A stretch of DNA of 32,525 bases from assembly GCA_043826455.1 (NCBI GenBank), contig JBDRQD010000060.1, positions 1-32,525 of the forward strand. The letters run 5' to 3'. Source of the DNA: Candidatus Bathyarchaeota archaeon. Its GTDB lineage: Archaea > Thermoproteota > Bathyarchaeia > TCS64. The notes under the pieces were generated by a model. It did not search any database and was not told the DNA's origin. It saw nothing but the letters and a program-made list of their open reading frames with translations. Positions 6,221 through 32,174 of this stretch are shown piece by piece (the stretch's first letter is position 1; every line of letters begins with the position of its first letter). Both the position numbers and the translations under genes were made by a program.

Positions 6221-7507
6221 CTACTTGACCCGGGTCAGGTGCACAGAGCACGAGATGCAGGGGTCGTAGGCCCTGACCATGACCTCTATGGCGTTCTTGA
6301 TGGCAGCGTCGTCCTCAGCGACCAGGTTCCCGGCTATGACCCGGGCGTCCTTCTCTATGTTGGCCGCGTTCTGAGCCGTGGGCGTGATGATGTTCGCCTT
6401 CACTACCCTGCCCTCGCCGTCGAAGCTGTAGTCGTGGTACAGGAGGCCCCTAGGGGCCTCGATGGCGTTGATGCCTCTGGCCTCGAACACCTCGTACTCC
6501 ACGGGCTCCTCCTGCCTGAGGCCTTGGGACAGGAGCTCGTCGATGTCGTTGACAGCCCTCTGCACGTCGTGGACCAGCTCCAAGGCCTGGCACAGGTTGT
6601 TGCTGAGGGAGTTACCCGCCTTGATGAGGCCCCTGTGCTCTTTATAGAGCTCACCAGCGTCCCCGTCCATCTTTCTCCCAGAGAGCACCATCCTGGGCAG
6701 GGCACCCACCATAAAGGGGCCACCGTCGTACTTAGAGAATTTAGCGTAGGAGTGGCCCACCACCTTCTCGTTGGTCAACGACAGGTACTGCGCCTCCGGG
6801 ACCCGCTCCCCTCTGGATGTGAGTACGTGGTCGCCCATGTACCCGAACCGGGGCCCCGAGTCTATGGCCATCAACAGGTTCTCCGACTCAGCGTACTGGG
6901 GCGGCTCGACGGCTGAGAGGAGCTTCACCGCCAGCTCCGTAACCGGTATCACGCCCAGTAATTCGTTCATCACCTTCTTCAGCTGCGCCCCCGACGGAAC
7001 CCTGCTGAACCCACCGACCCCCTCGTTCATGCCGTGGACCTCCCGGCCGCTGAGAGCGGTGTGGATCATGTTTCCCACCTTCTTGAGGCGTAGAGCCATC
7101 TTCACGGCGTCCAGGTGCTCTGAGGCCATGCTTATGGCGTCCGGGTAGCCGAGGAAGTCTGGCAGGGCCAGCATGAACACGTGCAGCGCATGGCTCTCAA
7201 TGGCCTCCCCGTGGATGAGGAGGTCCCTGAGAAGCCTGGTCTGGGGGGTGACCTCAACATTGAAGGCGTTCTCTATGGCCCCTATGGAGGCAAGGCTGTG
7301 GGACGCGGTGCATATGGCGCATATGCGCCGGGTGATGTCGGGTATCTTCTCGTGGTGAACCCCCTTGATGAGGTGCTCGAAGAACCTGGGCCCCTCGAAT
7401 ATCTGGAATTTCACCGACCTGACCTTCTTCCTGCTGAGGACCACCTCGATGCCTCCGTGGCCCTCTACCCTGGTCAGTTCCTCGATACTGAGTGTCCTCG
7501 ACATCAC
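6221..7507 (-). CDS. hydA: Group 3b [NiFe]-hydrogenase large (alpha) subunit
   Basis: TRVEGHG, L1 motif RRICAIC, EAPRGLLYH, and L2 motif RAYDPCISCSVH followed by a short LTRVK extension. Confidence 0.95.
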   Translation of the reverse strand: MMSRTLSIEELTRVEGHGGIEVVLSRKKVRSVKFQIFEGPRFFEHLIKGVHHEKIPDITRRICAICTASHSLASIGAIENAFNVEVTPQTRLLRDLLIHGEAIESHALHVFMLALPDFLGYPDAISMASEHLDAVKMALRLKKVGNMIHTALSGREVHGMNEGVGGFSRVPSGAQLKKVMNELLGVIPVTELAVKLLSAVEPPQYAESENLLMAIDSGPRFGYMGDHVLTSRGERVPEAQYLSLTNEKVVGHSYAKFSKYDGGPFMVGALPRMVLSGRKMDGDAGELYKEHRGLIKAGNSLSNNLCQALELVHDVQRAVNDIDELLSQGLRQEEPVEYEVFEARGINAIEAPRGLLYHDYSFDGEGRVVKANIITPTAQNAANIEKDARVIAGNLVAEDDAAIKNAIEVMVRAYDPCISCSVHLTRVK

Positions 7508-8271
7508 TCCGCGCCCTCCATTAGGTCCTCAGGCAGCTTACCGCTGAACACCTTGAGCCTGTTCATAATGTACTCCCGCGTGTAACCCTTGTCCAGAAGC
7601 ATCTTCAGCTCCGCCGCGTAGTTGCCTCCCCCCTCTATAGGCCCCCGGCAACCTATGCAGTCCAGGCCCAGGCCCGGGCACCGAGCCTTGCAGCCGGCCC
7701 TGACTACTGGGCCCAGGCAGGGCTTGTTCTCCTCCAGTATCAGGCACGGGTACTCCAGAAGCTTGCACTCCACGCACACCGGGTAGGCGTACCTTGGGGG
7801 GCTGTCCCCGTGCAGGAGGCTGGTTATGCCCCTGAGAACCTCGTCCTTCTCCACCGGGCAACCCGGTATGCTGTGGTCCACCTTGACGTAGGCCTCCAGG
7901 GGCCTGGGCTCCAAGGCAGCGGTGACCGTCACCTTGACGCCGTACACCTCCTTCATCCTCTCCTCCAGGGTGGTCTCCTCGTTCCTCATGGCCTGGACGC
8001 AGCCCTCCGTGGCGCAGTTGCCCAGAGCCACCAGGACGCTGGCCCTCTCCCTTATGTCCCGCAGGTGGTGGAGGTCCCTCTCCGTGGACACGGTTCCCTC
8101 GACGAAGGCGATGTCCAGGGGCCCCTTTTCTTTGCGGCTGCTGCCCTCCTGGAAGTCCACGATGTTGAGCCGGGCCACAAGGTCCAGGAGCTCGTCCTCC
8201 ATGTTGAGTATCTGGAGCTGGTCTCCACCGCAACCCGTTAAGCCGAATATCCCTACTCTCGGTTTAGCCAT
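7504..8271 (-). CDS. hydD: Group 3b [NiFe]-hydrogenase small (delta) subunit, 255 aa
   Basis: The true start is ATG 8271 (MAKPRVGIFGLTGCGGDQLQ) with a GGAGG SD. Motifs: FVEG, GNCA, PGCP, VCVEC and CLGP-GC-CP-CIGCRG. Confidence 0.93.
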   Translation of the reverse strand: MAKPRVGIFGLTGCGGDQLQILNMEDELLDLVARLNIVDFQEGSSRKEKGPLDIAFVEGTVSTERDLHHLRDIRERASVLVALGNCATEGCVQAMRNEETTLEERMKEVYGVKVTVTAALEPRPLEAYVKVDHSIPGCPVEKDEVLRGITSLLHGDSPPRYAYPVCVECKLLEYPCLILEENKPCLGPVVRAGCKARCPGLGLDCIGCRGPIEGGGNYAAELKMLLDKGYTREYIMNRLKVFSGKLPEDLMEGAE

Positions 8272-8282
8272 CTCAGTGCCTC

Positions 8283-9167
8283 CTAGATCATCCCCTTGGT
8301 GTTCATGGCGTCCCACATGGTGAAGACGGGCCCGTCCTTGCAGACGTACTTGATGGACTTGCCTGTGCCCACTATGCACTGGCCGCACTGGCCCAGGCCG
8401 CACCTCATGCGCCTCTCCAGGGTCATGTAGATGCGCTCGGGGGGCAGCCCCAGCTTCTCCAGCTCCCCCACAGTGAACCTGTACATGATGGGCGGGCCCC
8501 CCAGGATAGCGTAGGTGTTGCGGGTGGGCGGATCGATCTTGCCGAAGAGAGATGTGACCAGGCCCTTCATGCATCTGTCGCTCCTCTCGCACTCCAGCCC
8601 GTAGCAGGCCTGGTCGCTCTCGTCCTCGTAGCTGAGGTAGAGCTTTACGCCCTGCCTGTCGCCGTCCCGGAAGTAGCTCAGTATGTCGTCCTTGAAGAGC
8701 ATGAGGTCGTAGCACCTGACGCCGTAGAGGACGCTGATCTCGCCGAACCTCTCCCTGTTCATGAGGGCGTACTGGAGCACCCCCCGTATGGGGGCTATGC
8801 CCAGGCCGCCGGCGACCAGGAGGAGGTCGCTCCCCTCGAACCTGTCCATGGGGAACCCGTTGCCGTAGGGGCCTCTCACCCAGACTATGTTCCCGGCCTT
8901 GAGGCTGTGGATGGCGTTGGTCACCCTGCCGGCGTTCCTTATGCAGAGCTCCAGGCCGGGCTCGCCGGTCTGGGCCGTGCATATGGAGATGGGTGCCTCG
9001 CCGACGCCCATGACGCCCAGCTTGATGAACTGGCCCGGGGTGTAGGTGAAGTTCTCGGCGTACTCCTTGTCCTGGAACTTGATGGTCACCAGCTTCTCGA
9101 TACCCGTCATCTCACGTATCTCGGTTATCCTGGCCTTGGCCGGCTCCAACGGGTTGAAAGTCGTCAC
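8283..9167 (-). CDS. hydG: Sulfhydrogenase gamma subunit (FAD/NAD(P)-binding, [2Fe-2S]; AsrB-like)
   Basis: PGQF, GEAPISI, RGPYGNGF, AGGLGIAP and ERRMRCGLGQCGQC...CKDGPVF. Confidence 0.92.
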   Translation of the reverse strand: MTTFNPLEPAKARITEIREMTGIEKLVTIKFQDKEYAENFTYTPGQFIKLGVMGVGEAPISICTAQTGEPGLELCIRNAGRVTNAIHSLKAGNIVWVRGPYGNGFPMDRFEGSDLLLVAGGLGIAPIRGVLQYALMNRERFGEISVLYGVRCYDLMLFKDDILSYFRDGDRQGVKLYLSYEDESDQACYGLECERSDRCMKGLVTSLFGKIDPPTRNTYAILGGPPIMYRFTVGELEKLGLPPERIYMTLERRMRCGLGQCGQCIVGTGKSIKYVCKDGPVFTMWDAMNTKGMI

Positions 9168-10189
9168 TGCGCGTCACCTCTCACCTTACTCATGACCTCC
9201 ACGAAGTCTATGTCTGCGGGACAGAAAGTGGAGCACCTGCCGCAGCCCACGCAGTTGGGCAGACCCTCCCGTAGGCTCCCCTTGCAGTTGAACCTGTTAC
9301 GGAGGCGTTCCGCTGGGGACGGCCTGAAGTTGTGGCCCCCAGCCACCAGCCCGTGCTCCTTGAGCATGCACGAGTACCATGTCCGCACTCTCTCACCCGT
9401 GTTCATGTCCAGGTTCAGGTAGTCTTGGACGTCGTAGCACCTGCACCGGGGGCACACAAGGTTGCATGAGCCGCAGCCGAGGCATCTGTCGCCGTATTCT
9501 TTCCAGACCGGTGAATCGTAGGTCACGTCCAGAAACTCCTGGAGGCCCGACATCTCCAGGCTCAGAGTGAACGCCTCGTGCCGACGCTTCTCGGCCTCCT
9601 TGAAGGCCTCGATGTCCGCGGCCTCCGCTGGTGTGAAGAGCCTGGGGTGGGCCTTCACTATGTTGCTTCCCTTGAGGCTTCCCACTCGCACCAGGTACCT
9701 GTCCTCGATGTCGTTGAGAAACAGCTCGTACCCCTCCTGGGCGAAGCTGGTGCCAGTGGACTCGCAGAAGCAGTGCTCATCGGGCGTACAGCTGACCCCC
9801 ACGATGACGGAGTTGCGCCTGCGGTCCAGGTAGTACTTGTCAGGGAGCTCCTCCATGAAGACGCGGGCCAGCAGGTTCATGGCGTTGATGTCGCAGGCGT
9901 GGACGCCCAGGAGCACCATTGCCCTGTCTATATTAGGGGGCTCCGCGTACTCCTCCCGCTCCTTGTCGAACGTGAATATGATCTCCTCCGGGTGTATGAA
10001 GTACTTCTTGGGAGGTATCATGGTCCGCGTGTAGGAAAGGTCAGCCTCCTCCAGAGCCCGGACGATCTGGAACCTGTGGGTCTTCTCTGTGGCCTTTACG
10101 GGGGCCGCCACGTCCCCGTAGCCCTGGAGGGCCTGGAAGAACTCCTTCATCCGAGATTTGCTGAGAACTTTAACAAGTGGTTCACTCAA
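9164..10189 (-). CDS. hydB: Sulfhydrogenase beta subunit (Fe-S; AsrA-like)
   Basis: PPKKYF, GVHACD, CTPDEHCFC, CLGCGSCNLVCPRCRC and CVGCGRCSTFCP; overlaps the hydG start. Confidence 0.92.
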   Translation of the reverse strand: MSEPLVKVLSKSRMKEFFQALQGYGDVAAPVKATEKTHRFQIVRALEEADLSYTRTMIPPKKYFIHPEEIIFTFDKEREEYAEPPNIDRAMVLLGVHACDINAMNLLARVFMEELPDKYYLDRRRNSVIVGVSCTPDEHCFCESTGTSFAQEGYELFLNDIEDRYLVRVGSLKGSNIVKAHPRLFTPAEAADIEAFKEAEKRRHEAFTLSLEMSGLQEFLDVTYDSPVWKEYGDRCLGCGSCNLVCPRCRCYDVQDYLNLDMNTGERVRTWYSCMLKEHGLVAGGHNFRPSPAERLRNRFNCKGSLREGLPNCVGCGRCSTFCPADIDFVEVMSKVRGDAQ

Positions 10190-11152: not shown

Positions 11153-11632
11153 ATGGCAGAGGGAGCGATGGTCGACCTAACAGGGTCCGACACGCGTTTT
11201 CTGAGAAGCCTCAGCAAGGAGCTCGGAGCAGCCGACCTCTCCAAGTGCTTCCAGTGCGGCGTATGCACCGCCTCGTGCCCCGTCAGGGAGATGGAGGAAA
11301 GGTTCAACCCGCGAAAGATAATGAAGCTGGCCAAGCTGGGCCTGAAGGACGAGGTATTCAAGAGCGACTTCATCTGGCTGTGCAGCATGTGCTTCATGTG
11401 CCACGAGAGGTGCCCCCAGGACGTCAAGCCACCGGACGTGATGACCGTCCTCAGGAACATGGCGGCCAAGGAGGGCAAGGCGCCCCCCAACCTGGTGAAG
11501 CTGATGAGCATCCTGGCCGAGAACGGCCGCGTATACCCCCTGGACGACTTCACAGCTGAGGAGCGGGAGGACCGGGACCTGCCTGAGCTGGAGCAGGAGC
11601 CGGGCTTCGTGAAGAAGATAGCGGAGGCATGA
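11153..11632 (+). CDS. hdrC: Heterodisulfide reductase subunit C
   Basis: CFQCGVCTASCP and WLCSMCFMCHERCP. Confidence 0.93.
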   Translation: MAEGAMVDLTGSDTRFLRSLSKELGAADLSKCFQCGVCTASCPVREMEERFNPRKIMKLAKLGLKDEVFKSDFIWLCSMCFMCHERCPQDVKPPDVMTVLRNMAAKEGKAPPNLVKLMSILAENGRVYPLDDFTAEEREDRDLPELEQEPGFVKKIAEA

Positions 11633-12504
11633 AGTTGAAGTACCAACTGTTCCTAGGATGCACCATACCGGCTCGGCAGTCCAACTACGAGCAGTCTGCC
11701 CGGAAAGTGTCCGAAGCCCTGGGCATAGAGCTCTCCGACCCAGAGTTCGGGTGCTGCGGGTTCCCCATAGAGCCCGTGGACGAGGTGAAGGCCCTAGCCA
11801 TGGCGGCAGTGAACCTGAAGAAGGCGGATGAGGATGACAGCTCGGTGGTAACCCTTTGCTCGGCTTGCGGAGAGATGCTCGTCAAAGCGGAGAAGCTCCT
11901 AGGCGACGAGGAGACAGCCAAGAAGGTTAACGCGGTGCTGACCAAGAGCGTGGGGACAACCTACGAGGGCGAGAAGCCGGAGGTCCTCCACTTCGCCAGG
12001 ATGCTCCACCAGGTCTACGGCCTGGACAAGATCAGGGAGAAGGTGAAGAAGCCCCTCGGCCTCAAGGTGGCCACCCACCCGGGATGCCACTACGTCAGGC
12101 CCAAGGACCTGTTCGCAGGCTTCGACGACCCGGAGTACCCGCGGAGCCTGGACGAGCTTGTGGAGGCCACGGGCGCCGAGTCCGTGGACTACGTGGGCAA
12201 GACGGACTGCTGCGGGGGCAGCCTGCTGGCCGTGGACGAGAGGGTGTCCAAGGCCATGACCCGGAAGAAGCTGGACAGGCTCAAGGGGAAGGTGGACGCC
12301 CTGGTGCTCATCTGCCCCTTCTGCGGTATAATGTACGACAAGTACCAGAGGCTCCTGGAGGAGGAAGCAGATACCAAGTACGGTGTGCCTGTGCTCTACT
12401 ACCCTCAGCTCCTGGGCCTAGCCCTGGGCCTGGACCCAGGCGACCTGGGCTTCGACGTGAACTCAGTATCCGTTAAGCAGTTGCTGGAGAAGGTGATGAA
12501 ATGA
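11629..12504 (+). CDS. hdrB: Heterodisulfide reductase subunit B
   Basis: Two CCG domains: LGC...GCCG...CSAC and HPGCH...DCCGG...CPFC; also YYPQLLGLALG. Confidence 0.93.
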   Translation: MKLKYQLFLGCTIPARQSNYEQSARKVSEALGIELSDPEFGCCGFPIEPVDEVKALAMAAVNLKKADEDDSSVVTLCSACGEMLVKAEKLLGDEETAKKVNAVLTKSVGTTYEGEKPEVLHFARMLHQVYGLDKIREKVKKPLGLKVATHPGCHYVRPKDLFAGFDDPEYPRSLDELVEATGAESVDYVGKTDCCGGSLLAVDERVSKAMTRKKLDRLKGKVDALVLICPFCGIMYDKYQRLLEEEADTKYGVPVLYYPQLLGLALGLDPGDLGFDVNSVSVKQLLEKVMK

Positions 12505-14819
12505 CTGGAGTGTTCATCTGCCGCTGCGGCGGCAACATAAGCGGCACCGTGAAGTGTGAGGAGGTCAGGGACGCAGTCAAGGGCATGGAGGGCGTGAAAA
12601 CCGCCCAGGTCACCGACTTCCTGTGCAGCAAGCCTGGGCTTCAGCTCATCAGAAACGCCATCAAGAACAGGAAGCTGGACAGGGTGGTGGTGGCCTGCTG
12701 CAGCCCTCACATGCACGAGAAGATGTTCCAGAACGTCATCGAGGAGGAGGGCGTCAACAGGTACCAGATGGTCCACGTGAACCTCCGGGAGCACTGTAGC
12801 TGGATACACGACAAGGGGGCCACCGAGAAGGCCGTCAGCCTCGTTAAGGGGGGCGTCAAGCGGGCTCAGGCCCTGCAGCCCCTCCAGGACAAGGAGATAG
12901 ATGTCAACAGGGACGTCATGGTGGTGGGCGGAGGCGTGGCGGGCATCACAGCCGCCCTGCAGCTCGCGGAGGCCGGGTTCAACGTCAACCTGGTGGAGCG
13001 AAACCCCAGCATAGGGGGCAGGATGGCCCAGCTGAGCAAGACCTTCCCCACCCTAGACTGCAGCCCCTGTATACTCAGCCCCAGGATGGCCGAGGTGGAG
13101 AACACCCCCAACATCACCCTCTACACCAACAGCGAGGTCCAGGAGCTATCCGGAGGCCCAGGTAACTTCCGGGTCAAGGTCAAGGCGAGGGCCCGGGGCG
13201 TGGACGCCGACAAGTGCCTCAAGTGTGGGCGGTGCAGCCAGGTCTGCCCCACAGAGGTGCCCAGCGAGTTCGAGGAGGGCATGTACCCAAGGAAGGCCAT
13301 ATACCTGCCCTTCCCCCAGGCCGTGCCCAGCAGCTACATAGTGGACTTCGAGCACTGCATCGGCTGCCAGGCCTGCGTAGACGCTTGCCCGGTGAAGGCC
13401 GTGAACCTAGACGAACAGGACAAGGAGATCGAGGTGGACGTGGGCTCCATAGTCGTGGCCACGGGCTTCGACCTCATAGACGACACCCACCTCAGGAGCT
13501 ACAGGCCCGACCACCCCCAGGTCATCAACGCCATGCAGGTGGAGAGGCTCATAGAGAACGAGCTCACCGAGGGCAAGGTGCTCACCACCCCCAGCGGGGG
13601 CAGGGTGAAGAGCCTGGCATACATCCTGTGCGCAGGCAGCAGGGACCCCCACAGGGGCGTCAGCTACTGCAGCAGCGTCTGCTGCCCCTACACTGTGAAA
13701 CAGGCCATACTGCTGAAGAAGTTCCTACCCTACCTCAAGATATACATATACTACACGGACATGAGGATGACGGGCCGAGGCTTCGAAGACTTTTACCGTG
13801 AGGCCCGGGAGAAGGACATAATCTTCATCCACGGCAAACCAGGCAACCTAACGCCTCTACCGGAGGGCGGCGTGGAGATCAAGGTGGAGGACATGGACAC
13901 CGGGCTCCTCACCAGGAACCTGGTGGATATAGCGGTCCTAAGCTCAGCCATGGTACCCTCCAAGGGCACGGCTGAGCTGGCCAACAGGCTGGGCATAGCT
14001 CTGGGCGAGGACCTGTTTATTGCCAGCAAGCATGTGAAGCTGGACCCCATAAGCACCCTGAAGGAGGGCATCTACGCGGCGGGGGTGGCCACGGGAACTA
14101 AAGACATCCACGACTCCGTCATAGACGCCCGAGCCGCCTCCAGCCACGTAACCAACTTCCTAGGGGAGGGCAAGCTGAAGCTGAGCCCCTTCAAGCCGGT
14201 GCACGTGGGCGAGTGTGACCACTGCGGCCTCTGCGTGGAGGCCTGCAACAGGAACGCCGTGAAGCTGGAGGAGCAGGGACCGGTCATCGAGCTTGTGAGC
14301 TGCAACGGCTGCGGAGCCTGTGTGGCAGCCTGCCAGATGGGCGGACTCACGCTTCCCAACTACACCAAGAAGGCACTTCTGGGCGAAGTAGAGGGCCTCC
14401 TGGAGGACAAGGGGGACGAGGTGGCCGTCGTAGGCTTCTTTGACGACAACATAAGCTACACTGCCGCCGACAACGCCGGCACGGCCAGACTCCACTACCC
14501 CACCAACATGAAGATCGTCAGGACAACCACTACCGCTATCCTCGACAAGGACATCATCCTGAGAACCTTCGCCCTGGGCGCCGACGGCGTCATGGTGAGT
14601 GAGGTGGAGGAAAGCCACGAGGCCGAGCTGGCCCACCGGCTGGTGGACGACGTGAAGAAGGCGCTGAGTGAGAGGGGCGTGGAGCCCGAGAGGGCCATGT
14701 TCCAGCCCATGGTTCTACCCATCTTCAAGGTGCTCCCCAAGTTCATCTCGGACTTCACCGACAAGGTGAAGGCCCTGGGCATGATACCTGACGACAAGAG
14801 GAGGAGCCTCCTCTCCTAA
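12501..14819 (+). CDS. hdrA: Heterodisulfide reductase subunit A with a fused C-terminal MvhD-like domain
   Basis: CRCGGNI/ACCSP/REHCSW N-domain, GGGVAG FAD site, KTFPTLDCSPCIL, inserted ferredoxin, CAGSRD...CSSVCC and a C-terminal ferredoxin, followed by SYTAADNAGTARLHYP...GADGV...GVEPER (MvhD-like). Confidence 0.93.
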   Translation: MTGVFICRCGGNISGTVKCEEVRDAVKGMEGVKTAQVTDFLCSKPGLQLIRNAIKNRKLDRVVVACCSPHMHEKMFQNVIEEEGVNRYQMVHVNLREHCSWIHDKGATEKAVSLVKGGVKRAQALQPLQDKEIDVNRDVMVVGGGVAGITAALQLAEAGFNVNLVERNPSIGGRMAQLSKTFPTLDCSPCILSPRMAEVENTPNITLYTNSEVQELSGGPGNFRVKVKARARGVDADKCLKCGRCSQVCPTEVPSEFEEGMYPRKAIYLPFPQAVPSSYIVDFEHCIGCQACVDACPVKAVNLDEQDKEIEVDVGSIVVATGFDLIDDTHLRSYRPDHPQVINAMQVERLIENELTEGKVLTTPSGGRVKSLAYILCAGSRDPHRGVSYCSSVCCPYTVKQAILLKKFLPYLKIYIYYTDMRMTGRGFEDFYREAREKDIIFIHGKPGNLTPLPEGGVEIKVEDMDTGLLTRNLVDIAVLSSAMVPSKGTAELANRLGIALGEDLFIASKHVKLDPISTLKEGIYAAGVATGTKDIHDSVIDARAASSHVTNFLGEGKLKLSPFKPVHVGECDHCGLCVEACNRNAVKLEEQGPVIELVSCNGCGACVAACQMGGLTLPNYTKKALLGEVEGLLEDKGDEVAVVGFFDDNISYTAADNAGTARLHYPTNMKIVRTTTTAILDKDIILRTFALGADGVMVSEVEESHEAELAHRLVDDVKKALSERGVEPERAMFQPMVLPIFKVLPKFISDFTDKVKALGMIPDDKRRSLLS

Positions 14820-14870
14820 CTTTTTCAAGTTCTACTTAGTAATTGTAATGTAGGCAACGATAATGGAGGC

Positions 14871-15023
14871 TTAAGCCAGTGCCTCGTTCTCCAGAACCGG
14901 CTCAGCTTCAACAAGATTTACCTCAGGCGAGACAAGCACACGGGTTCTGATGACCCACAAGGCCGCCGCGGCCACCAATAAGTAGCAGACGACGCACAAG
15001 GCGATGAGGTCCGTGGCGTACAT
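14871..15023 (-). CDS. Small single-pass membrane protein, 50 aa (below the ORF-track cutoff)
   Basis: Manual translation: MYATDLIALCVVCYLLVAAAALWVIRTRVLVSPEVNLVEAEPVLENEALA*. Confidence 0.55.
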   Translation of the reverse strand: MYATDLIALCVVCYLLVAAAALWVIRTRVLVSPEVNLVEAEPVLENEALA

Positions 15024-23400: not shown

Positions 23401-23414
23401 CGAACATGTGTTCG
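23401..23414. promoter_or_regulatory. Palindrome CGAAC-ATGT-GTTCG just upstream of the thiolase TATA box
   Basis: 5-4-5 inverted repeat followed by TTTTAATAT at about 23422; ATG at 23460. Confidence 0.45.
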
Positions 23415-23459
23415 TCACAAGTTTTAATATCGGCAAAACCAAGGGCCGAACTGATAAAA

Positions 23460-24695
23460 ATGTCCTTACACCGAAACGTCTGCATAGTGGGAGCCGGGAT
23501 GACCCGCTTCCACCACAAGCTCCACGCCGACAAGCAGGGTCGCGAGTTATTCGTGGAGGCCGCCCTGGAGGCCGCCGCCTCTGTGGACAAGGACTTCACT
23601 CTGGGCGACGCCGAAGCCCTCTACTTGGGGTACTTCAGCAGCGACATGTTCGAGCGCCAGGCTCACACCTCGGCCCTCATGGCTGACTGGCTGGGCGTCA
23701 ACCCCATACCCGCCACCCGGATAGAGACGGCCTGCGCCAGCAGCGGGGCCGCCGTCAACGTGGGGGCATTGGCCGTGGCCTCGGGCCTGTACGACGTTGT
23801 GCTGGTGGGGGGTGTGGAGAAGATGAGGAACCTGGATACAGGCCAGGTGACGGACACCCTGGCATTGGCCGCGGACGCCAGCTACGAGGCAGCCATGGGG
23901 TTCACCTTCCCCGGGCTGTACGCGGCCATGGCCGACGCCCACTTCAGCAAACACGGTAGCACGTGGGAGCAGCTGGCGGCCATAGCCGTGAAGAACCATG
24001 TGAACGGAGCCCTGAACGATAAGGCTCAGTACCAGGAGACAATCATGGAGATCGCGGGGAAGCTGGGGGAGCGCAAGGGGCTCAAGTTCAGGGATGAGCT
24101 GGAGTTCCTCAGATCAGAGCTGAACCCGTTTGTGGCCTCACCCCTGCGCCTGTTCGACTGCTGCCCCATATCCGACGGGGCCGCCGTGGTCGTGCTGGCC
24201 GCCGAGGAGGTGGCCCACAAGTACACTGACACGCCGGTGAAGCTTCTCGGCCTGAGCCAGGCCTCTGACACCATGGCCATACATGACAGGGAGGACCTGA
24301 CCACGCTGAAGGCAACGACACTAGCCTCGCGTCAGGCCTACAAGATGGCCGGGGTGAAGTCCAAGGATGTGGACGTGGCCTGCGTCCACGACTGCTTCAC
24401 CATAGCCGAGCTTGTGGCCACGGAGGACCTGGGCTTCTTCCCCAAGGGCAAGGGCGGCGTGGCCGCCGTGGAGGGCAGAACTGGCCTCAGCGGCGACAAG
24501 CCCATAAACCCCGACGGCGGCTTGAAGGCCAAGGGCCACCCGGTGGGCGCCACGGGCGCGGCCATGGTGGTGGAGATGTTCAAGCAGCTGCGGGGCCAGG
24601 CCGGCCGACGCCAGGTGAAGGACGCCGAGGTGGGCCTGACGCAGAACGTGGGGGCGGCGGGGGCCACCGTCGTCGTCCAGGTGTACGGGAGGTGA
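23460..24695 (+). CDS. Thiolase (archaeal/SCP2-type acetyl-CoA acyltransferase)
   Basis: ETACASSG catalytic Cys, DCCPISDGAA, VHDCFT and GHPVGATG; likely start ATG 23460. Confidence 0.92.
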   Translation: MSLHRNVCIVGAGMTRFHHKLHADKQGRELFVEAALEAAASVDKDFTLGDAEALYLGYFSSDMFERQAHTSALMADWLGVNPIPATRIETACASSGAAVNVGALAVASGLYDVVLVGGVEKMRNLDTGQVTDTLALAADASYEAAMGFTFPGLYAAMADAHFSKHGSTWEQLAAIAVKNHVNGALNDKAQYQETIMEIAGKLGERKGLKFRDELEFLRSELNPFVASPLRLFDCCPISDGAAVVVLAAEEVAHKYTDTPVKLLGLSQASDTMAIHDREDLTTLKATTLASRQAYKMAGVKSKDVDVACVHDCFTIAELVATEDLGFFPKGKGGVAAVEGRTGLSGDKPINPDGGLKAKGHPVGATGAAMVVEMFKQLRGQAGRRQVKDAEVGLTQNVGAAGATVVVQVYGR

Positions 24696-24699
24696 TGCT

Positions 24700-25074
24700 G
24701 TGAGCGAGTTCACTACTGTCGATTCGTTCGTCAAGGGGTTAGCCGAGGGGAAGCTGAAGGGGTGTAGGTGTAAAGCCTGCGGGAGGCTCATGGTTCCGCC
24801 CAGGCCCATCTGCCGCAGCTGCGGCTCCACCGACCTTGAGCCCTACGTGTTCAAGGGTACCGGGAAGTTAGCGGCGTCCACCGTCATCTACGTGCCCCTC
24901 ACCAGGTTCCAGACCATGTGCCCCTACTCCGTGGGCGTGGTCCAGCTTGACGAGGGGGAGAGCATAAGCGGCCTCATCCTGAGCGACGGAAAACACTTGA
25001 CGCCTGGAACAAAGGTCAAGGCAAAATACCTGAAGGAGGAAGGCCGGGTGACCCTGGCCTTCCAGCCCGCCTAG
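24700..25074 (+). CDS. DUF35 Zn-ribbon/OB-fold thiolase partner
   Basis: CKACG...PPRPICRSC followed by an OB-fold; directly downstream of the thiolase. Confidence 0.9.
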   Translation: MSEFTTVDSFVKGLAEGKLKGCRCKACGRLMVPPRPICRSCGSTDLEPYVFKGTGKLAASTVIYVPLTRFQTMCPYSVGVVQLDEGESISGLILSDGKHLTPGTKVKAKYLKEEGRVTLAFQPA

Positions 25075-26885
25075 GACCTGTAGACGGGCTTCCTCTTCTC
25101 GTTGAAGGCCGTGATGCCCTCACGAAGCTCCCCGTGGTCCCAGAGGCCGGTGAAGGCGTCCTCCTCGGCCTTCAGGGCCTTGGATAGCTGGGGGTCCAGG
25201 CTCAGGAGCCTCTTGATCTCAGCAATGGCGTGGGGCGGCCCCTCCGCCATCTTCTTGGCGTACTCCCAGACTCGGGCCTCGAACTCGGCCGCCGGGTAGA
25301 CTGTGTTAACCAGCCCGGCCTTGTGGGCCTCCTCGGCGTCCAGTCTCCTGCCCGTGAGGATCATCTCCCCGGCCAGGGTCTTGCCCACCAGCCTGGACAG
25401 CATGTAGGTGGCGCCCCAGCCCGGCATGAGACCCAGGGTCACCTCGGGTTGACCAAACCGTGCCTTTTCCGAGGCCAGCCTGATGTCGCAGAAGAGGGCT
25501 AGCTCGCATCCTCCCCCCAGACAGTAGCCGTTCACTGCAGCCACCACCGGCTTAGGAGTCTCCATGATCTTCTTGAAGACCCTGTGGCCGGTCTGGGGCA
25601 CCTTCCTGGCCTGGGTCTTGTTGAACTCCAGGAAGGCGTTGATGTCGGCCCCGGCGCTGAAGGCCCTGTCTCCGGCTCCCTTGAACAGGATGCAGCCCAC
25701 AGAGGCGTCCTTAGCGGCTTCCTCCAGGGCCGCCTCTATCTGCTCCAGCATGTCCAGTGTGAGGCTGTTGAGCTTGGCCGGCCTGTTGATGGTTATGACG
25801 TAGACTCCCTCCTTTTTCTCGGTGAGGATGGGCTTCTCCTCGCCCAGCCCGGCCTGCCTCATCTCGAAGGGGCCCTTGGGGATGTTGGCGCCCAGCTTCA
25901 TGGCCGTGTCCACGTCTGCCTCCGAGGCCACACCCTCCTTGACCAGCTTCTCGGCCTCAGCCACGAAGGGCCGCAGCAGCAGTGCCACGTCGAAGCCCTC
26001 TGCCTGGGCCTCGGTGACGCTGGGCCTCTCCTTGTAGCCGTAGAAGCCTTGGCCTGTCTTGCGGCCCAGCTTCTTGGCCTCGTAGAGGGCCGTGATGCGT
26101 TTGTCTGGCTTGTACCCTGGGCCCAGTTTCTCCTCGAACACTTTGAGTATGTCGTGGACTATGTCCAGTCCTATGAGGTCGCTGAGCATGAAGGGGCCCA
26201 GGGGCATGCCCGCCTTGTGCTGCATGGCCGCGTCTATCTGCTCCACGCTGTACTTGTCCAGGAGCTTGGCGGCGTCGTTGAGGTAGGTGACGAGGACCCT
26301 GTTCACTATGAATCCCGGAGAGTCTTTCTTTACGTGGACGGGGGTCTTGCCCATGCGCTTGGCCAGCTCAATGACCGTCTCAACGGTCTCAGGCTTGGTC
26401 TCGGCGCCCTGGTTGACCTCCACCAGCCTCATGAGGGCCGGCGGGTTGAAGAAGTGCATGCCTATGAAGCGGCCCGGGCCTGGCACGGCCTCGGCTATCT
26501 CGGTGATGCTGAGGCTGCTGGTGTTGCTGGCCAGTATGGTGTCCTTGGGCGCCTTGGAGGCCACCTCCTTCCAGACGCTGTGCTTGATGCTCATCTTCTC
26601 CGGGATGGCCTCCACCACCAGTTGGGCATCCTTCACGGCCTCGCCGAGGTCCACGGTGAACCTGATCCTCGCCAGAGTCGCCTCCATGTCCCCGGGGCTC
26701 ATCCGGCCCCGCTCCACAAGCTTCCCGAGGCTTCCCCTGATTCCCTCCTCCGCCTTGGCCAGGAACTCCTGGGCTATGTCCCTGACGGTGACCGTGTACC
26801 CGGCGGAGGCGGCCACCTGGGCTATGCCGTGGCCCATGACCCCCGCGCCGAGGACAGTGATCCTCTGAACCTGATCAGCCTTCAT
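25071..26885 (-). CDS. 3-hydroxyacyl-CoA dehydrogenase / enoyl-CoA hydratase fusion
   Basis: HAD part: GAGVMGHGIA, SNTSSL, GMHFFNP, PGFIVNR. Crotonase part: NRPAKLN, FSAGADI, GGGCELA, GQPEV. Confidence 0.95.
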   Translation of the reverse strand: MKADQVQRITVLGAGVMGHGIAQVAASAGYTVTVRDIAQEFLAKAEEGIRGSLGKLVERGRMSPGDMEATLARIRFTVDLGEAVKDAQLVVEAIPEKMSIKHSVWKEVASKAPKDTILASNTSSLSITEIAEAVPGPGRFIGMHFFNPPALMRLVEVNQGAETKPETVETVIELAKRMGKTPVHVKKDSPGFIVNRVLVTYLNDAAKLLDKYSVEQIDAAMQHKAGMPLGPFMLSDLIGLDIVHDILKVFEEKLGPGYKPDKRITALYEAKKLGRKTGQGFYGYKERPSVTEAQAEGFDVALLLRPFVAEAEKLVKEGVASEADVDTAMKLGANIPKGPFEMRQAGLGEEKPILTEKKEGVYVITINRPAKLNSLTLDMLEQIEAALEEAAKDASVGCILFKGAGDRAFSAGADINAFLEFNKTQARKVPQTGHRVFKKIMETPKPVVAAVNGYCLGGGCELALFCDIRLASEKARFGQPEVTLGLMPGWGATYMLSRLVGKTLAGEMILTGRRLDAEEAHKAGLVNTVYPAAEFEARVWEYAKKMAEGPPHAIAEIKRLLSLDPQLSKALKAEEDAFTGLWDHGELREGITAFNEKRKPVYRS

Positions 26886-26980
26886 TACGTTTCAAGGGTT
26901 TATCAGAGTCTGGGTTTAAAGCGTTTTTCGGGTGGTAAAGGCTTTAACCGCATCACCCCATGATAGCCGGGAGAAAAACG

Positions 26981-27766
26981 ATGAGGCAGATAGTTCTGCT
27001 GAAGGACATACCGGACCTCACGGAGATCAAGGTGGACTCGGAGACCCGGGCGCCCAGGGTGGAGGGCGTGAAGCGCAGGATCAGCGACCTGGATAAGCGG
27101 GCTCTGGAGGCCGCTATCAGGCTCAAGGAGACGGTGGGCGGCGAGATTCTGGCCCTATCCATGGGGGACGACAAGACCAGGACCGCGATGCTGGAGGCCC
27201 TGGCCATGGGGGCCGACGCTGCCTACGTGGTAGACGAGCCCGGGTTTAGGGGCCTGGACACCAACGCCACCAGCATCGTCCTGGAGGCCGCCATACGCAA
27301 GATTGGTGAATACGACCTGATTGTCTCTGGGGAGATGACCCTGGACAGCCTCAGCAGCCAGGTGGGGCCCAGGGTGGCCGAGCTCCTGGACCTGCCCCAG
27401 CTCACATACGTCAAGGAGGTGTCGGTTGGCGGAGGCAAGGTGAAGGCCGTCAGGGACCTGGAGGACGCGGATGAGGTGGCCGAAGCTCCGCTGCCGGCGC
27501 TCATCACCGTTGTCCGGGAGATCAATGAGCCTAGGATACCCAGTCTCATGAACATCATGAAGGCCAAGAGGAAGCCCCAGTCCGTGTGGACGGCCCAGGA
27601 CCTGGGTCTGGACCCGGCCGGGGTGCAGGCCATGAGCCACGTGAAAGTTCTGGGAGTCACCGCGCCCAAGGTGGAGCGGAAGCAGATCAGGGTGGAGGCC
27701 GACACCGTGGAGGAGGCGGCTGCCAAGCTGGTGGAGCACCTGGTGGGGGAGGGGGTCATAAGATGA
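26981..27766 (+). CDS. etfB: Electron transfer flavoprotein beta subunit
   Basis: LKDIPD, DKRALEAA, ALAMGAD, QVGPRVAELL and INEPRIPS; the start is 26981 or 26960. Confidence 0.92.
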   Translation: MRQIVLLKDIPDLTEIKVDSETRAPRVEGVKRRISDLDKRALEAAIRLKETVGGEILALSMGDDKTRTAMLEALAMGADAAYVVDEPGFRGLDTNATSIVLEAAIRKIGEYDLIVSGEMTLDSLSSQVGPRVAELLDLPQLTYVKEVSVGGGKVKAVRDLEDADEVAEAPLPALITVVREINEPRIPSLMNIMKAKRKPQSVWTAQDLGLDPAGVQAMSHVKVLGVTAPKVERKQIRVEADTVEEAAAKLVEHLVGEGVIR

Positions 27767-28689
27767 GGTTCCTAGTTTTCAGCGAAGACCCTGAGGTCGG
27801 CGCCCAGCTCACGGGCAGGGCTAGAGCCCTAGCCAACCAGACCGGGGGGGAAGTAATTGCATTGACCACAGGAGACCCTGCCCTGTGTTTCAGGTTCGGC
27901 GCGGGTAGAGTGGTGAAGGTTGATGGGTTAGGTGAGTTCGCCGTTGAGCCCTACAAGGTGGCCATGGTTCGCGCAGTTGAGGCAGTCAACCCTAACGTGG
28001 TGCTGATTGGCGCTACCAGGAGGGGAAAGGAGCTGGCCCCCAGGCTGGCCGCCGCTCTCCGGGTGGGCTCCATGACGGAGTGCACCTCAGTGGACATAGT
28101 TGACGGGCGGGTAGTCGTTGAGCGTCTCACCTACGGGGGCTCAACAGTAGCCAGGGAGGCTTGCACCAGCAGCCCCACGGTGATATCGGTGCCGCCCCGC
28201 ACCTACGCGAAGCCTGAGCCCTCAGACAAGGCCGGGGAAGTTATCGAGCTGAAGGTTGAGGCCCCCGAGCCAAGAGTGAAGGTGCTGGAGAGGCGCCCCA
28301 AGCCCAAGGCGTCAGCGGACCTGGAGAGTGCCTCCATCATCGTGTCCGCGGGCCGCGGCTTCAAGGCCAAGGAGGACCTGAGGCTCCTAGAAGAGCTGGC
28401 CGAGGTCCTGGGCGCCCAGATGGGGTGCACCAGGCCGATCAGCGCGGACCTGGGATGGATGGACCAGTGGGTAGGGATAAGCGGCAAGAAGGTGAGGCCC
28501 AGTCTCTACGTGGCCTGCGGCATCAGCGGCACCATCCAGCACGTGGCGGGCATCAGGGACAGCCAGATCATCGTCAGCGTCAACAGCGACGAGTCGGCGG
28601 GCATCCACGGCATCAGCGACTACAGCATCGTGGGAGACGTGTACAAAGTGCTACCCGCCCTGGCTAAGGCTCTCAGGGAACGAGCCTAA
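27763..28689 (+). CDS. etfA: Electron transfer flavoprotein alpha subunit, 308 aa
   Basis: ATGA overlap with the etfB stop; IVSAGRG, GCTRP, VGISG, LYVACGISGTIQH and IVGD. Confidence 0.92.
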   Translation: MRFLVFSEDPEVGAQLTGRARALANQTGGEVIALTTGDPALCFRFGAGRVVKVDGLGEFAVEPYKVAMVRAVEAVNPNVVLIGATRRGKELAPRLAAALRVGSMTECTSVDIVDGRVVVERLTYGGSTVAREACTSSPTVISVPPRTYAKPEPSDKAGEVIELKVEAPEPRVKVLERRPKPKASADLESASIIVSAGRGFKAKEDLRLLEELAEVLGAQMGCTRPISADLGWMDQWVGISGKKVRPSLYVACGISGTIQHVAGIRDSQIIVSVNSDESAGIHGISDYSIVGDVYKVLPALAKALRERA

Positions 28690-29911: not shown

Positions 29912-30397
29912 ATGTCGTTCAGAGCCGGCTACCTCACCCCACGGGAAACAGAGATATGGAGCCTCAGGAGACGAATCCCCAACCAGTCCGAGATCGCCAG
30001 AACCCTAGGAGTCAGCAGGCAGGCCGTCAACATATCCCTGGGCATAATAACAGGGAAGATGGAGCAAACCTTCCAGGAGTGCCTGGACGCCAACAACCTG
30101 AAGCCCAGGAAGATCAACCTCGTCGAAGGCGTCATGGAGGCCTACAGCCCGGCATACGAGTTGCCGGTCATCGTCAGCCTCAGCGTCGCCAACGGCCTGA
30201 AGGTCTGGTACCTCTACGAGGGCAGGTGTGGCCGCTGCGACCTGGAGCGAGGATGCCGGAGGGCGCTTCTGGGTGAGGCGCGTGAGAGGTGCGTGGAGCT
30301 GGGGCCCGAGGAGGTGAGGCTTGAGCCGACGAGGCTCGCCCATAAGATATTCTCAAGGTACCTGACGGAGGAGCACACCGTTGACAAGAAAGAGTGA
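29912..30397 (+). CDS. HTH DNA-binding protein (sigma70-r4/Tfx-like) with a C-terminal CxxC-x5-C motif
   Basis: LTPRETEIW...QSEIARTLGVSRQAVN and CGRCDLERGC. Confidence 0.85.
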   Translation: MSFRAGYLTPRETEIWSLRRRIPNQSEIARTLGVSRQAVNISLGIITGKMEQTFQECLDANNLKPRKINLVEGVMEAYSPAYELPVIVSLSVANGLKVWYLYEGRCGRCDLERGCRRALLGEARERCVELGPEEVRLEPTRLAHKIFSRYLTEEHTVDKKE

Positions 30398-32174
30398 CAC
30401 GCTGGACGCGTGCCCGTTCCCGCCTGACAGGTCACCTCCACCTAAAACGGCGTCAACCAATGTTCTTGAGTACGCTGACCGGTTCTTCGAGGGCTGGAGG
30501 AACTACATGGGGTTAGTGACGATGATGGGCCTCGTTTTAGCGTACAGCCTGCTAGTGATACCTCCACCACTGATCACCAGGGCCACTACACCCGAGACCT
30601 GGAACACGCCGATGGAGTATAGGCAGTCACATGTAGACTATTTCAAATGGGTGAATGTGAGGGAGCCGGACTACAGCACCTCAAAACAATTAATTCTGGA
30701 AGGCGACCAGGTGCTTGAGTTCAAGGACCAGACAGTAAATTTCACTGATCTCGTCCTAGTAAAGGGCAACGCCAAGATTATACTAAGGAATTCGACGCTC
30801 ATCGCCCCGGACTACCCGGGGTACATGTTCGAGGATATATTCCACGATTACGCTGGGATGGTGTTCAACGGCAGTGCAAGGCTTGAGGCCTACGACTCGT
30901 TCGTCACGCCCTCTAGACGTTTCATTCCGAATCCATCTTTACAGTTAACCTTTAACATTGGTTTCATGGGGCAAAGCAGCTGCTATCTTGAGAATACATT
31001 GATCGTCAACTGCACTCTAAATTTCGACGATTCAGCGACGCTAGAAGCCATAGAGTCGTCCATCTATGGAGTGAACGCAGACCGCTCGAGCTCCCTCAAG
31101 CTCGTAAACTCCTACGTAAGTGTGTTAAAACAAGATAACTATTGGAGGAGCAGGTGGGCGAACCCTGTGAAGGAGGTGGACGCGTCCGCCTACCTTGAAG
31201 GTTCAAGGGTCGATTTGCTCATGGTTAGAGTCGTGAACAGCTCAAGCTGCCAAATAACCGGTAATGTGGGGGAGCAGAGCTTCTGGAATATCTATGACGC
31301 CTTCAAGATAGACGGCGACACAATGAACGTCACCCTGCGCGGGGGCTCGACTGCCGGGTCGGTCTGGGTCTACGCGATAAACAGCAGACTCAACATCACG
31401 GACGCGGAGGTCTACTTCGTGCAGGCGAGACGGTCAAAGGTGTCGATGAAGGATACCAAGGTCATCTCTGTTTCACTGTATGGCGACTCCAGCCTCACGG
31501 CCAAGGACTCGAACATCTATTCATTCGTCGCGGAATCCCATCCACCCAACATGGAATATCTCTGGGGCGTGCCCGCGGGGAGGTTTCACCAGAACGCTTC
31601 AATAGCGAAGACGCGGCTCGAGAGCATGAGGCTGGGCGCTAATTGTAGGTACAACTTCTCTGATGTCTACGTGGGCGACGCCTCAATCCGAGGCTTCGAG
31701 AGCGTTCTTTCGGGTAGCATCGCCTGGGGGCAGGGCATCAGCAACGAGTTCTACTTAACTCCATACGATAGGTTCGCGTTCACCCAAGTCTTTGAGGTCC
31801 ACACCCAGGGCCAGGAACGAGTGCTCCCCGGAGTCAGCTTTGTTCTCACCGACAAGGACGGCAATGTTGTGTGGGAGGGCGCCAGCGACGGGAACGGCGT
31901 GGCGTCCTTCAACATCACCTTCTGCCAATACTACCCCCTGCACGAGCCCTACAAGTATGTCACCAACTATATGGACGAGTGGAGGCTGAAGGCCATCTAC
32001 GGGGATAAAACCATGGAGACCGGCGTCGCACTGTTCAAAACAGGATCACCGATAGTGTTCGAGTTCTCTGAAGACAAACCTGTGCTTCCAGTAAGTAACG
32101 CTGCCTTAACCTATGCCAGTATGACCATAATCCTTCTAGCGACAACTCTGAAGTTCTGGACACTGCGACAGTGA
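30381..32174 (+). CDS. Large membrane-anchored surface protein (beta-rich/solenoid-like, C-terminal Ig-like domain)
   Basis: N-terminal TM segment (GLVTMMGLVLAYSLLVI), Ser/Asn-rich beta repeats, VLTDKDGNVVWEGASDGNG and a C-terminal hydrophobic anchor. The start is TTG 30381 or a later ATG. Confidence 0.75.
   Translation: MTRKSDTLDACPFPPDRSPPPKTASTNVLEYADRFFEGWRNYMGLVTMMGLVLAYSLLVIPPPLITRATTPETWNTPMEYRQSHVDYFKWVNVREPDYSTSKQLILEGDQVLEFKDQTVNFTDLVLVKGNAKIILRNSTLIAPDYPGYMFEDIFHDYAGMVFNGSARLEAYDSFVTPSRRFIPNPSLQLTFNIGFMGQSSCYLENTLIVNCTLNFDDSATLEAIESSIYGVNADRSSSLKLVNSYVSVLKQDNYWRSRWANPVKEVDASAYLEGSRVDLLMVRVVNSSSCQITGNVGEQSFWNIYDAFKIDGDTMNVTLRGGSTAGSVWVYAINSRLNITDAEVYFVQARRSKVSMKDTKVISVSLYGDSSLTAKDSNIYSFVAESHPPNMEYLWGVPAGRFHQNASIAKTRLESMRLGANCRYNFSDVYVGDASIRGFESVLSGSIAWGQGISNEFYLTPYDRFAFTQVFEVHTQGQERVLPGVSFVLTDKDGNVVWEGASDGNGVASFNITFCQYYPLHEPYKYVTNYMDEWRLKAIYGDKTMETGVALFKTGSPIVFEFSEDKPVLPVSNAALTYASMTIILLATTLKFWTLRQ

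Follow-up and report, generated by a model that had tools for sequence, protein, structure and literature searches.

A conserved MvhD-type domain without cluster cysteines on HdrA of a Bathyarchaeia genome

How are electrons delivered to an HdrA flavin if the MvhD-type domain that should deliver them contains no cysteine? This question is raised by the window analyzed here, a stretch of 32,525 nucleotides that is one whole contig (C60) of a 2.95-Mb Candidatus Bathyarchaeota genome (completeness 97.66%, contamination 7.21%). Three overlapping plus-strand genes of the window, hdrC-hdrB-hdrA, form one operon, and the last of them encodes HdrA fused to a C-terminal MvhD-type domain (referred to as HdrA* below). 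[quoted passage not shown] In the same portions of these papers (2025-2026), the electron crossing of the 22-30 Å gap between the MvhD [2Fe-2S] cluster and the bifurcating FAD is called an open gap.

An MvhD-type domain and its missing ligands

A reading of the window made from the letters and translations only (the sequence-only reading) had described the tail of HdrA* as an MvhD-derived domain that had lost all cluster cysteines, to be checked with the family profile, and both the profile and structure prediction bear this out. The Pfam family FlpD/MvhD (PF02662) matches residues 643-760 (E 9e-22; 77.9 bits against a gathering cut-off of 22.3) and is covered from end to end (positions 1-123 of 123), and six solved MvhD/VhuD/ElpC sequences match the domain at E values of 1.5e-11 to 1.2e-7. 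The AlphaFold model of the isolated domain has a predicted local distance difference test score (pLDDT) of 87, and in Foldseek it overlays four solved MvhD/ElpC chains with template-modelling (TM) scores of 0.86-0.89 and root-mean-square deviations of 1.8-2.2 Å, all other listed matches being at TM 0.57 or below. In the model of the full-length protein (mean pLDDT 91.7), the domain scores 86-96 per ten-residue block, and residues 651-670 rise from 69/63 in the isolated domain to 89/91, the two models having different alignment depths (33 vs. 90).

In the numbering of M. marburgensis MvhD (9sw2_D), taken from the sequence alignment, the positions C13, C42, C67, and C72, which we take to be the [2Fe-2S] ligands of MvhD, are cysteine in 30 of 30 canonical rows, which fits a ligand role; the corresponding figure for C16 is 26 of 30. 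All five are gone from HdrA*: Asp, Thr, and Val stand at C13, C42, and C67, I651 stands in place of C16, and C72 is deleted rather than substituted, the D71-C72-H73-Y74 loop being five residues shorter. Asp71 and His68 of MvhD, which face the HdrA Cys pair, are also affected, the former by the loop deletion and the latter by replacement with E703. A search with residues 620-772 gave 76 homologous proteins (53-97% domain identity; one is a fragment), and none of the 76 has Cys at 648, 651, or 677, nor does any of the 75 that reach position 702 have it there. The last cysteine of HdrA* is C611. By itself, a Cys-free run of 132 residues would be unremarkable (p about 0.07-0.27 at 1-2% Cys), and the loss of the ligands is not attributable to chance because the same positions are Cys throughout the canonical rows and in none of the homologues. 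A Cys at position 700, the only recurring one, was considered as a shifted C67 and rejected: the position lies in a strand, is Cys in 35 of 75 homologues, and can also be Ser, Phe, Trp, or Met.

Selenocysteine and assembly error were rejected as well, the former in agreement with the sequence-only reading. No TGA, TGC, or TGT codon lies in frame within the domain, the G+C content at third codon positions is 0.88 (0.86 in the HdrA part), and identical substitutions occur in the 76 homologues. A contig from a DNA run that is possibly the source of the assembly, and is not independent of it, covers 11534-15000 with 0 differences.

The domain shares its fold and scaffold residues with MvhD, VhuD, ElpC, and BamF (PF02662; Mvh-Hdr, Fdh-Hdr, Elp-Hdr, and BCRII complexes; 5ODC, 7BKB, 8RVU, 9SW2); F11, Y18, D22, G25, R28, Y31-P32, GADG, and an Arg are kept. 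It differs from them in lacking C13/C42/C67/C72, C16, D71/H73/Y74, and the GN of the docking helix, in having a Pro-containing motif in place of WxSAxEG, and in being covalently fused to HdrA. The residues confined to canonical domains are the Cys set, G44, G66, CHY, and the GN that opens the docking helix; the available text of PMC13518236 assigns the VhuD helix N76-L93 to the docking site for Vhu/Fdh. P740, the second Pro of the new motif, is common to the whole Cys-less clade.

Is the tail then simply a dead MvhD that has drifted since fusion? In favor of such decay, columns conserved at 95% or more are fewer in the domain (33%) than in the FAD core (45-50%), and the ratio of non-synonymous to synonymous substitution (dN/dS, Nei-Gojobori) is somewhat higher in the domain than in the core in most pairs. 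This ratio nevertheless stays at 0.048-0.185 for the domain in 13 of 14 hand-picked close pairs, the remaining pair being saturated (core 0.042-0.102), and new near-invariant motifs have arisen (FFDDxISY, RxPSTA, ExE, and PMVLPIFKxLP). Moreover, no stop falls within any listed match of the class-wide searches, the fold is predicted to be intact, no homologue restores a ligand cysteine, and the domain persists in several archaeal lineages. Decay, which the sequence-only reading had also disfavored, is very improbable; as judged from these comparisons, the cluster-less domain is a conserved variant under purifying selection.

Table 1. Features of the hdrCBA* operon, with positions in the window
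Feature	Position	Strand	Details
hdrC	11153..11632	+	159 aa; both [4Fe-4S] motifs intact; Pfam Fer4_8; TIGR03290 112.5 bits, below cut-off 160
hdrB	11629..12504	+	291 aa; two CCG domains (Pfam); TIGR03288 235 bits, below cut-off 345
hdrA-mvhD* fusion	12501..14819	+	772 aa; residues 1-635 are a complete four-domain HdrA
C187-x-x-C190 pair by FAD	13059..13070	+	C202/C205 of M. marburgensis; in 74/74 covering rows
E348	13542..13544	+	Glu356 of M. thermolithotrophicus HdrA (positions Lys409); 77/77; Ala in methanogen HdrA1-type
K400	13698..13700	+	Lys409, FAD N5 lysine; 77/77
C-terminal 2x[4Fe-4S] ferredoxin domain, C572-C611	14214..14333	+	8 Cys in 77/77 rows and in 33/33 wider clade members
Cys-less MvhD domain	14421..14786	+	residues 641-762; Pfam PF02662, Foldseek TM 0.86-0.89, dN/dS 0.05-0.19
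D648 in place of C13	14442..14444	+	alignment; homologues D 74, E 2 of 76
T677 in place of C42	14529..14531	+	alignment; homologues S 72, T 4 of 76
E701-V702-E703 in place of G66-C67-H68	14601..14609	+	E701 E/D 74/75; V702 variable; E703 E/D 75/75
PMVLPIFKxLP motif	14706..14738	+	near-invariant, new; replaces canonical WxSAxEG

Spread of the Cys-less domain and its occurrence in HdrA1

The host genome contains six FlpD domains: two canonical free MvhD proteins, two fusions with all four Cys, HdrA*, and a second Cys-less fusion on contig C78, for which 204 homologues were found and 120 listed. Of 301 genomes of the class, 50 are matched by the alignment of the HdrA* domain at E ≤ 1e-25, with 25 of these reaching E ≤ 1e-33, and 104 are matched by the C78 domain at E ≤ 1e-20. 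Among 104 distinct full-length domains collected, 81 are Cys-less. In these 81, the C13 position is D/E in 79, the C42 position is S/T in all, and the G66 position is E/D in 80, a triad that is kept down to 25% identity; the C67 position varies, and C72 is deleted or replaced by G/D. A tree built from 54 rows, filtered to below 80% identity, places the 38 Cys-less rows together on the same side of a branch with 100/100 support. Among the 150 proteins listed by a profile search against 1.84 billion representatives, 104 have all four Cys, 43 have none (several of these are fragments), and three are in between. Named Cys-less members include a Methanobacterium HdrA above the cut-off of NF041891, one Methanoperedenaceae protein, and one Nitrososphaerales protein. 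Eleven Chloroflexota/Zixibacteria loci with a YTAADNAG pattern proved to encode ordinary Cys-bearing MvhD and were not counted as members.

Among methanogen proteins, the Cys-less domain is also present in HdrA1 of Methanosarcina acetivorans (HdrA1B1C1, MA3126-MA3128). The link to this protein was made through metagenome loci and cluster names, since the MA3128 row in the supplement of PMC9012536 ends before the C-terminus. A short motif from this MA3128_HdrA1 row retrieved 37 metagenome loci, 34 of which include the C-terminus, and all 34 complete proteins carry the Cys-less domain, with N, T, and E-D at the C13, C42, and G66-C67 positions. Two tested tails match Pfam FlpD (E 9e-16 and 1e-14); the tails have one Cys, at a non-ligand position. 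The model NF041778, which describes the Methanosarcina-type HdrA of "ferredoxin:CoB-CoM" reductase and has 771 positions, is passed at its cut-off by two full-length proteins of this type and failed by a third, truncated one. The M. acetivorans protein WP_048065616.1 belongs to the HdrA1-type cluster and has the same Cys-less tail; compared by eye, its N-terminus agrees with what is visible of the MA3128_HdrA1 row. When 60 domain rows were placed in a tree, the 28 that are Cys-less, HdrA1 with its long branch among them, fell together on the same side of a branch with 97/86 support. Judging from alignments and trees, the cluster-less domain is one group across Bathyarchaeia subfamilies, Methanobacterium HdrA, and M. 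acetivorans HdrA1. On the same grounds, the presence of an MvhD-type domain in HdrA1 contradicts the statement, in the available text of PMC6019823, that HdrA1, unlike HdrA2, lacks the MvhD-homologous extension.

The resemblance of HdrA* to these methanogen proteins is partial. HdrA1 (NF041778) and Methanobacterium hdrA_Methbact (NF041891) are both named ferredoxin:CoB-CoM heterodisulfide reductase subunit HdrA, and HdrA* shares with them the fusion to a Cys-less MvhD of the same domain clade (a feature found in this analysis that lies outside the two family definitions), a three-gene operon with hdrB and hdrC but no donor module, and the Lys409 and CxxC pair. It differs in a core identity of about 36% and a separate branch in the core tree, in keeping Glu356 (Ala there), in the absence of the KLAEEC insertion, in gene order (C-B-A in the window, A-C-B there and in the HdrA1-type metagenome operons), in its scores against NF041778 and NF041891 (611 and 632 bits, cut-offs 1400 and 1300), and in its host, in which no mcrA was found. 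The FAD-core tree (29 rows, of which 10 are not Cys-less and none is a canonical methanogen HdrA) resolves a Bathyarchaeia-type group of 13 rows (100/100) and a methanogen-type group of six rows (91/99). Glu356 is kept in 13 of 13 of the former and is Ala in six of six of the latter, and Lys409 and the CxxC pair are kept in both. From the sequence comparison, HdrA* may at most resemble HdrA1 in its mode of action, and it falls outside the HdrA1 family. The closest NCBIfam model for HdrA* is NF040770 (786 bits, below its cut-off of 1100), that of type Ia HdrA and M. acetivorans HdrA2 (HdrA2B2C2; PMC5296606, PMC12054007), which has the same order of HdrA and C-terminal MvhD. HdrA*, however, lacks every ligand in the domain, whereas in the available portions of these papers HdrA2 has a [2Fe-2S] cluster by iron count and motif, and type Ia is defined by an MvhD carrying one such cluster (PMC12054007).

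The proposal in the sequence-only reading of a distinct HdrA subtype is supported. Whether the subtype had already been characterized, a point on which that reading had left itself open to correction, is answered in two parts: the same domain is present in the genetically studied HdrA1, but it goes unrecognized in the available text on that protein, and the core of HdrA* falls in a different branch. A fused MvhD without ligands was not found to be mentioned in the available portions of the HdrA, MvhD, HdrA1, HdrA2, and Bathyarchaeia literature, including PMC11237513, 10.1101/2024.09.26.615249, and 10.64898/2026.04.10.717634; Appel 2021, Buan & Metcalf 2010, the supplements of PMC12054007, and the figures of PMC9012536 may bear on it. 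Pfam and NCBI annotate these genes as "hydrogenase iron-sulfur subunit" or HdrA-MvhD fusions, and to conclude from them, in a genome paper, that Bathyarchaeia carry out H2-driven bifurcation would thus over-read the evidence.

Two kinds of further domains were observed beside these groups. Half-way MvhD domains, observed in P0281 (whose full-length cluster mate is P0393) and in P0296, have D for C13 and S/D for C42 yet retain C16 and C67; their branches fall between those of the canonical and of the Cys-less domains. In addition, locus L009 (G000:C66:50133-54775) encodes tandem HdrA-MvhD fusions that keep four MvhD Cys and have Ala at the Glu356 position, a mirror image of HdrA*, and adjoins an Mvh-like hydrogenase.

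Electron supply to the HdrA* flavin

Apart from its tail, HdrA* is a complete four-domain HdrA. Residues 3-636 align with the solved HdrA 5odc_A (E 4e-166), the N-terminal, inserted, and C-terminal Fe-S Cys, the HA4 Cys, and the FAD-binding motif are all present, and all 28 HdrA Cys are invariant in the homologues that cover them. The C-terminal ferredoxin is fully intact though its normal outlet cluster is gone. The available text of PMC12054007 describes Glu356 and Lys409 as bifurcation-linked flavin contacts, and that of PMC13580544 describes the role of the Cys pair adjoining FAD. In hdrB, all ten Cys of the two non-cubane motifs can be read off the sequence. Neither mvhAG nor fdhAB is found in the hdrCBA* operon.

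The reading favored here, to which a probability of about 0.5 is given as a whole mechanism, is that of a cofactor-less brace in the mobile arm of HdrA within a ferredoxin-fed HdrCBA disulfide reductase, drawn largely by analogy. Its structural part, that the C-terminal MvhD copy binds no cofactor, is quite probable taken separately, and the cofactor-less module of the sequence-only reading is the best account of the domain. [quoted passage not shown] On the model of HdrA1B1C1, the inserted ferredoxin domain would be loaded by reduced ferredoxin rather than by hydrogenase. Electrons would then reach FAD over the shuttle cluster HA3 and the Cys pair, so that the low-potential branch would run backwards, and would exit through HA4 and HdrC to HdrB for the reduction of a disulfide. 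Since no mcrA was found in the genome, this disulfide is probably not CoM-S-S-CoB. According to the available text of PMC4561719, HdrA1B1C1 reduces heterodisulfide directly with ferredoxin electrons (overexpression, yields, and modelling) and competes with Rnf for them in a non-bifurcating manner, in an organism without expressed hydrogenase. Such behavior of the only Cys-less member studied in vivo suggests a ferredoxin:disulfide reductase mode for HdrA*, which by this analogy is likely not fed by hydrogenase in the textbook way and likely runs on ferredoxin instead.

Several points weigh against this account. The ferredoxin role of HdrA1B1C1 rests on physiology and modelling, and PMC6019823, in the text available, still proposes a bifurcating role for it and calls for validation. 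The two Cys-less core groups were joined in 0 of 200 bootstrap trees, which makes HdrA1 an analogue rather than an orthologue; this unrooted tree is compatible both with a transfer of the domain from one core to the other and with two separate losses of the ligands. The shift in mean charge of the docking helix, from +2.2 in canonical to +0.1 in Cys-less domains, is modest, and the ranges overlap. Moreover, ferredoxin can reduce HdrB2C2 without HdrA2 (available text of PMC5296606), so it is not obvious why HdrA would be required in a plain ferredoxin:disulfide reductase. The window group keeps Glu356, leaving the flavin environment linked to bifurcation intact, and its C-terminal ferredoxin keeps all eight Cys, which a ferredoxin-fed model does not need; both are left unexplained by the favored model. 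With the Glu356/Lys409 pair in place, HdrA* may bifurcate with another donor.

In a less probable alternative, Bathyarchaeial HdrA* would be a bifurcating flavoprotein without MvhD [2Fe-2S] input, retaining Glu356/Lys409, the Cys pair, and the shuttle cluster, and serving as one chassis plugged into HdrBC, a TfrAB/HdrB-like fumarate-reductase module, HdrD, or EtfAB; it would be loaded by hydride or by a carboxylate-held metal shared with the Cys pair. The hydride route, taken as a rival of its own, is rather improbable: F420H2 or NAD(P)H would pass hydride straight to the HdrA flavin for bifurcation or confurcation, as reported for HdrA2B2C2, with the [2Fe-2S] relay dispensable and ferredoxin and the HdrB disulfide as the two one-electron partners. 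In its favor, E348/K400, C187/C190, and all HA clusters are invariant, and the available text of PMC5296606 and PMC12054007 has HdrA2 alone reacting with F420 without a recognizable F420 site. The host genome contains CofE and one FrhB/FdhB gene but CofD was not found in it at 97.66% completeness, and in the same sources NAD did not replace F420 for HdrA2 (PMC5296606), which has its [2Fe-2S] cluster. NAD(P)H-linked modules (group 3b hydrogenase, Ech with a GltD-fused subunit, NfnAB, and EtfAB) are frequent neighbors, and in a sister subfamily the high-potential partner of this HdrA type is a fumarate-reductase-like module; the NAD(P)H-linked neighbors are not conserved, however, and HdrA1 behaves as non-bifurcating in what is available of PMC4561719.

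A metal held by carboxylates in the emptied pocket, through D/E648, S/T677, and E701 (in the window subfamily also D649 and E703), is improbable. The site could be structural, or it could preserve a relay to FAD by sharing the ligand seen between the Cys pair of HdrA and Asp71/His68 of MvhD. The sequence-only reading had suggested Asp/Glu/His ligands, and the Asp/Glu part draws on the triad kept in 79-81 of 81 Cys-less domains, on E703 at the His68 position, and on an extra density bound by Cys202/Cys205 and MvhD Asp71 near His68 in the available text of PMC13580544. On the other side, two subfamily relatives have G or Q at the C13 position and the 34 Methanosarcina-type proteins have N there, E703 is not kept outside the window subfamily, and the Asp71 loop is deleted. 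D648, T677, and S705 also lie at predicted helix starts; D, N, S, and T are ordinary helix-capping residues, which gives an ordinary reason for D/S/T there. A His ligand is unlikely: with His in 50 of 75 homologues, H706 (the His of SEVEESH) varies too much to be a conserved equivalent of the CHY histidine. Slightly less probable again is a [2Fe-2S] relay supplied in trans by the MvhD arm of a canonical HdrA partner, a separate Cys-bearing MvhD, or a neighboring hydrogenase. The available text of PMC13580544 shows solved dimers in which the MvhD of one protomer feeds the FAD of the other, HdrA heterodimers have been proposed (PMC9012536, in the part available), the host encodes Cys-bearing MvhD proteins and fusions, and the window, L022, and in part L011 have a group 3b hydrogenase next to the operon in divergent orientation. 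Nevertheless, in five genomes (85-97% complete), selected for lack of a strong canonical FlpD match, all 11 HdrA hits are Cys-less fusions, and one of the five (86% complete) has no other MvhD domain and no match to a NiFe large subunit. A Cys-bearing double-MvhD polyferredoxin likewise lies in an mvhGA-nfnA operon and was found in none of 24 genomes of the host's own genus, the host among them.

Whichever route applies, the Cys-less HdrA fusions are a widespread natural class without the MvhD cluster. M. acetivorans HdrA1 offers a genetically tractable host for which deletion and overexpression strains exist, and because methanogen members lost Glu356 and Bathyarchaeial members kept it, cluster loss and Glu356 loss are separable for experiment. 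If the bifurcating version were true, HdrA* would reveal a second way for electrons to enter the HdrA flavin and would amount to a natural knock-out of the MvhD-to-FAD step.

Gene neighborhoods and further observations

The Cys-less homologues and their gene neighborhoods, named as a check by the sequence-only reading, were examined in 27 subfamily loci, 26 of which carry the class label Bathyarchaeia; four begin inside hdrA and have no upstream DNA. In all 23 others, hdrB lies directly upstream of hdrA*, and an hdrC open reading frame (ORF) was found in 20 of 21. In the window, hdrB overlaps both hdrC and hdrA by 4 nt. The other neighbors vary: an Ech-like hydrogenase with a GltD-fused subunit (six loci), an HdrDE-like membrane protein (four), a molybdopterin oxidoreductase (three), and a group 3b hydrogenase (two, one partial). 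No mvhG/mvhA was found within the hdrCBA* operons of these loci, and in L019 a canonical mvh/hdr cluster converges on hdrCBA* from downstream. Sister subfamilies carry a TfrA/SdhB/HdrB-like set with fumarase and malic enzyme, or HdrD, EtfAB, GcvH, and NfnAB.

The minus strand of the window carries tatD and a four-gene, sulfhydrogenase-like group 3b hydrogenase (6221-10189; beta, gamma, delta, and alpha). A listed 492-aa ORF (7504-8982) overlaps the gamma gene, so the true start of the small subunit is probably near 8286. As a dedicated partner of HdrA*, this hydrogenase was rejected, being present at only two of 27 related loci. One of the loci concerned, L011, is labelled Candidatus Desulfaltia but is syntenic with the window (88-97% protein identity, Cdc6 included) and is probably a misbinned Bathyarchaeia contig; its hydrogenase cluster has shrunk to one 174-aa ORF matching both HydB and HydA. 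In the six loci with the Ech-like group 4 hydrogenase (L017:3418-5217, L015, L021, and L023-L025), the 30-kDa subunit is fused to a GltD/NfnB-type flavoprotein, and the cluster lies on the same strand directly upstream of hdrCBA*.

Promoter and terminator scans of the window were at chance level (two against 0.8 expected and three against 3.4, with a bacterial promoter model). A sediment metatranscriptome contig from a relative spans 13956-14802 with 67 differences in 847 nt; contigs cannot show transcription, and it was not used as evidence. Searches of plasmids with tblastn gave one bacterial match per run, which was not used, and the ESM Atlas yielded no clusters other than FlpD, all feature scores being under 0.9. 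Near the end of the window (30381-32174, plus strand) lies a 597-aa ORF with no Pfam match at E ≤ 0.001. About 9 kb downstream of the operon (23406-28689), a beta-oxidation-type cluster encodes EtfAB together with a thiolase, a ChsH2-like protein, and a fusion of 3-hydroxyacyl-CoA dehydrogenase with enoyl-CoA hydratase; in another subfamily, too, genes for EtfAB come after that for HdrA*.

The second Cys-less fusion of the host (L007:250-7377, G000:C78) lies in an operon with genes for an HdrB-like protein, an SdhB-like protein, a TfrA-like flavoprotein, and malic enzyme, in the order HdrB-like, SdhB-like, TfrA-like, the fusion itself, malic enzyme, with divergent fumarase genes in its relatives (L125-L127), and is a candidate soluble fumarate-reducing Hdr-type complex; its domain is matched at 52% identity or more in 51 of the 301 class genomes. 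The double-MvhD polyferredoxin mentioned above (about 400 aa; L181:6310-11310, G012:C12; also L108 and L111-L113) occurs in 90 of the 301 genomes, none of them from the host's own genus, either in an mvhG-mvhA-protease-polyferredoxin-nfnA operon or beside nfnAB, and this operon suggests an Mvh-Nfn module without HdrA.

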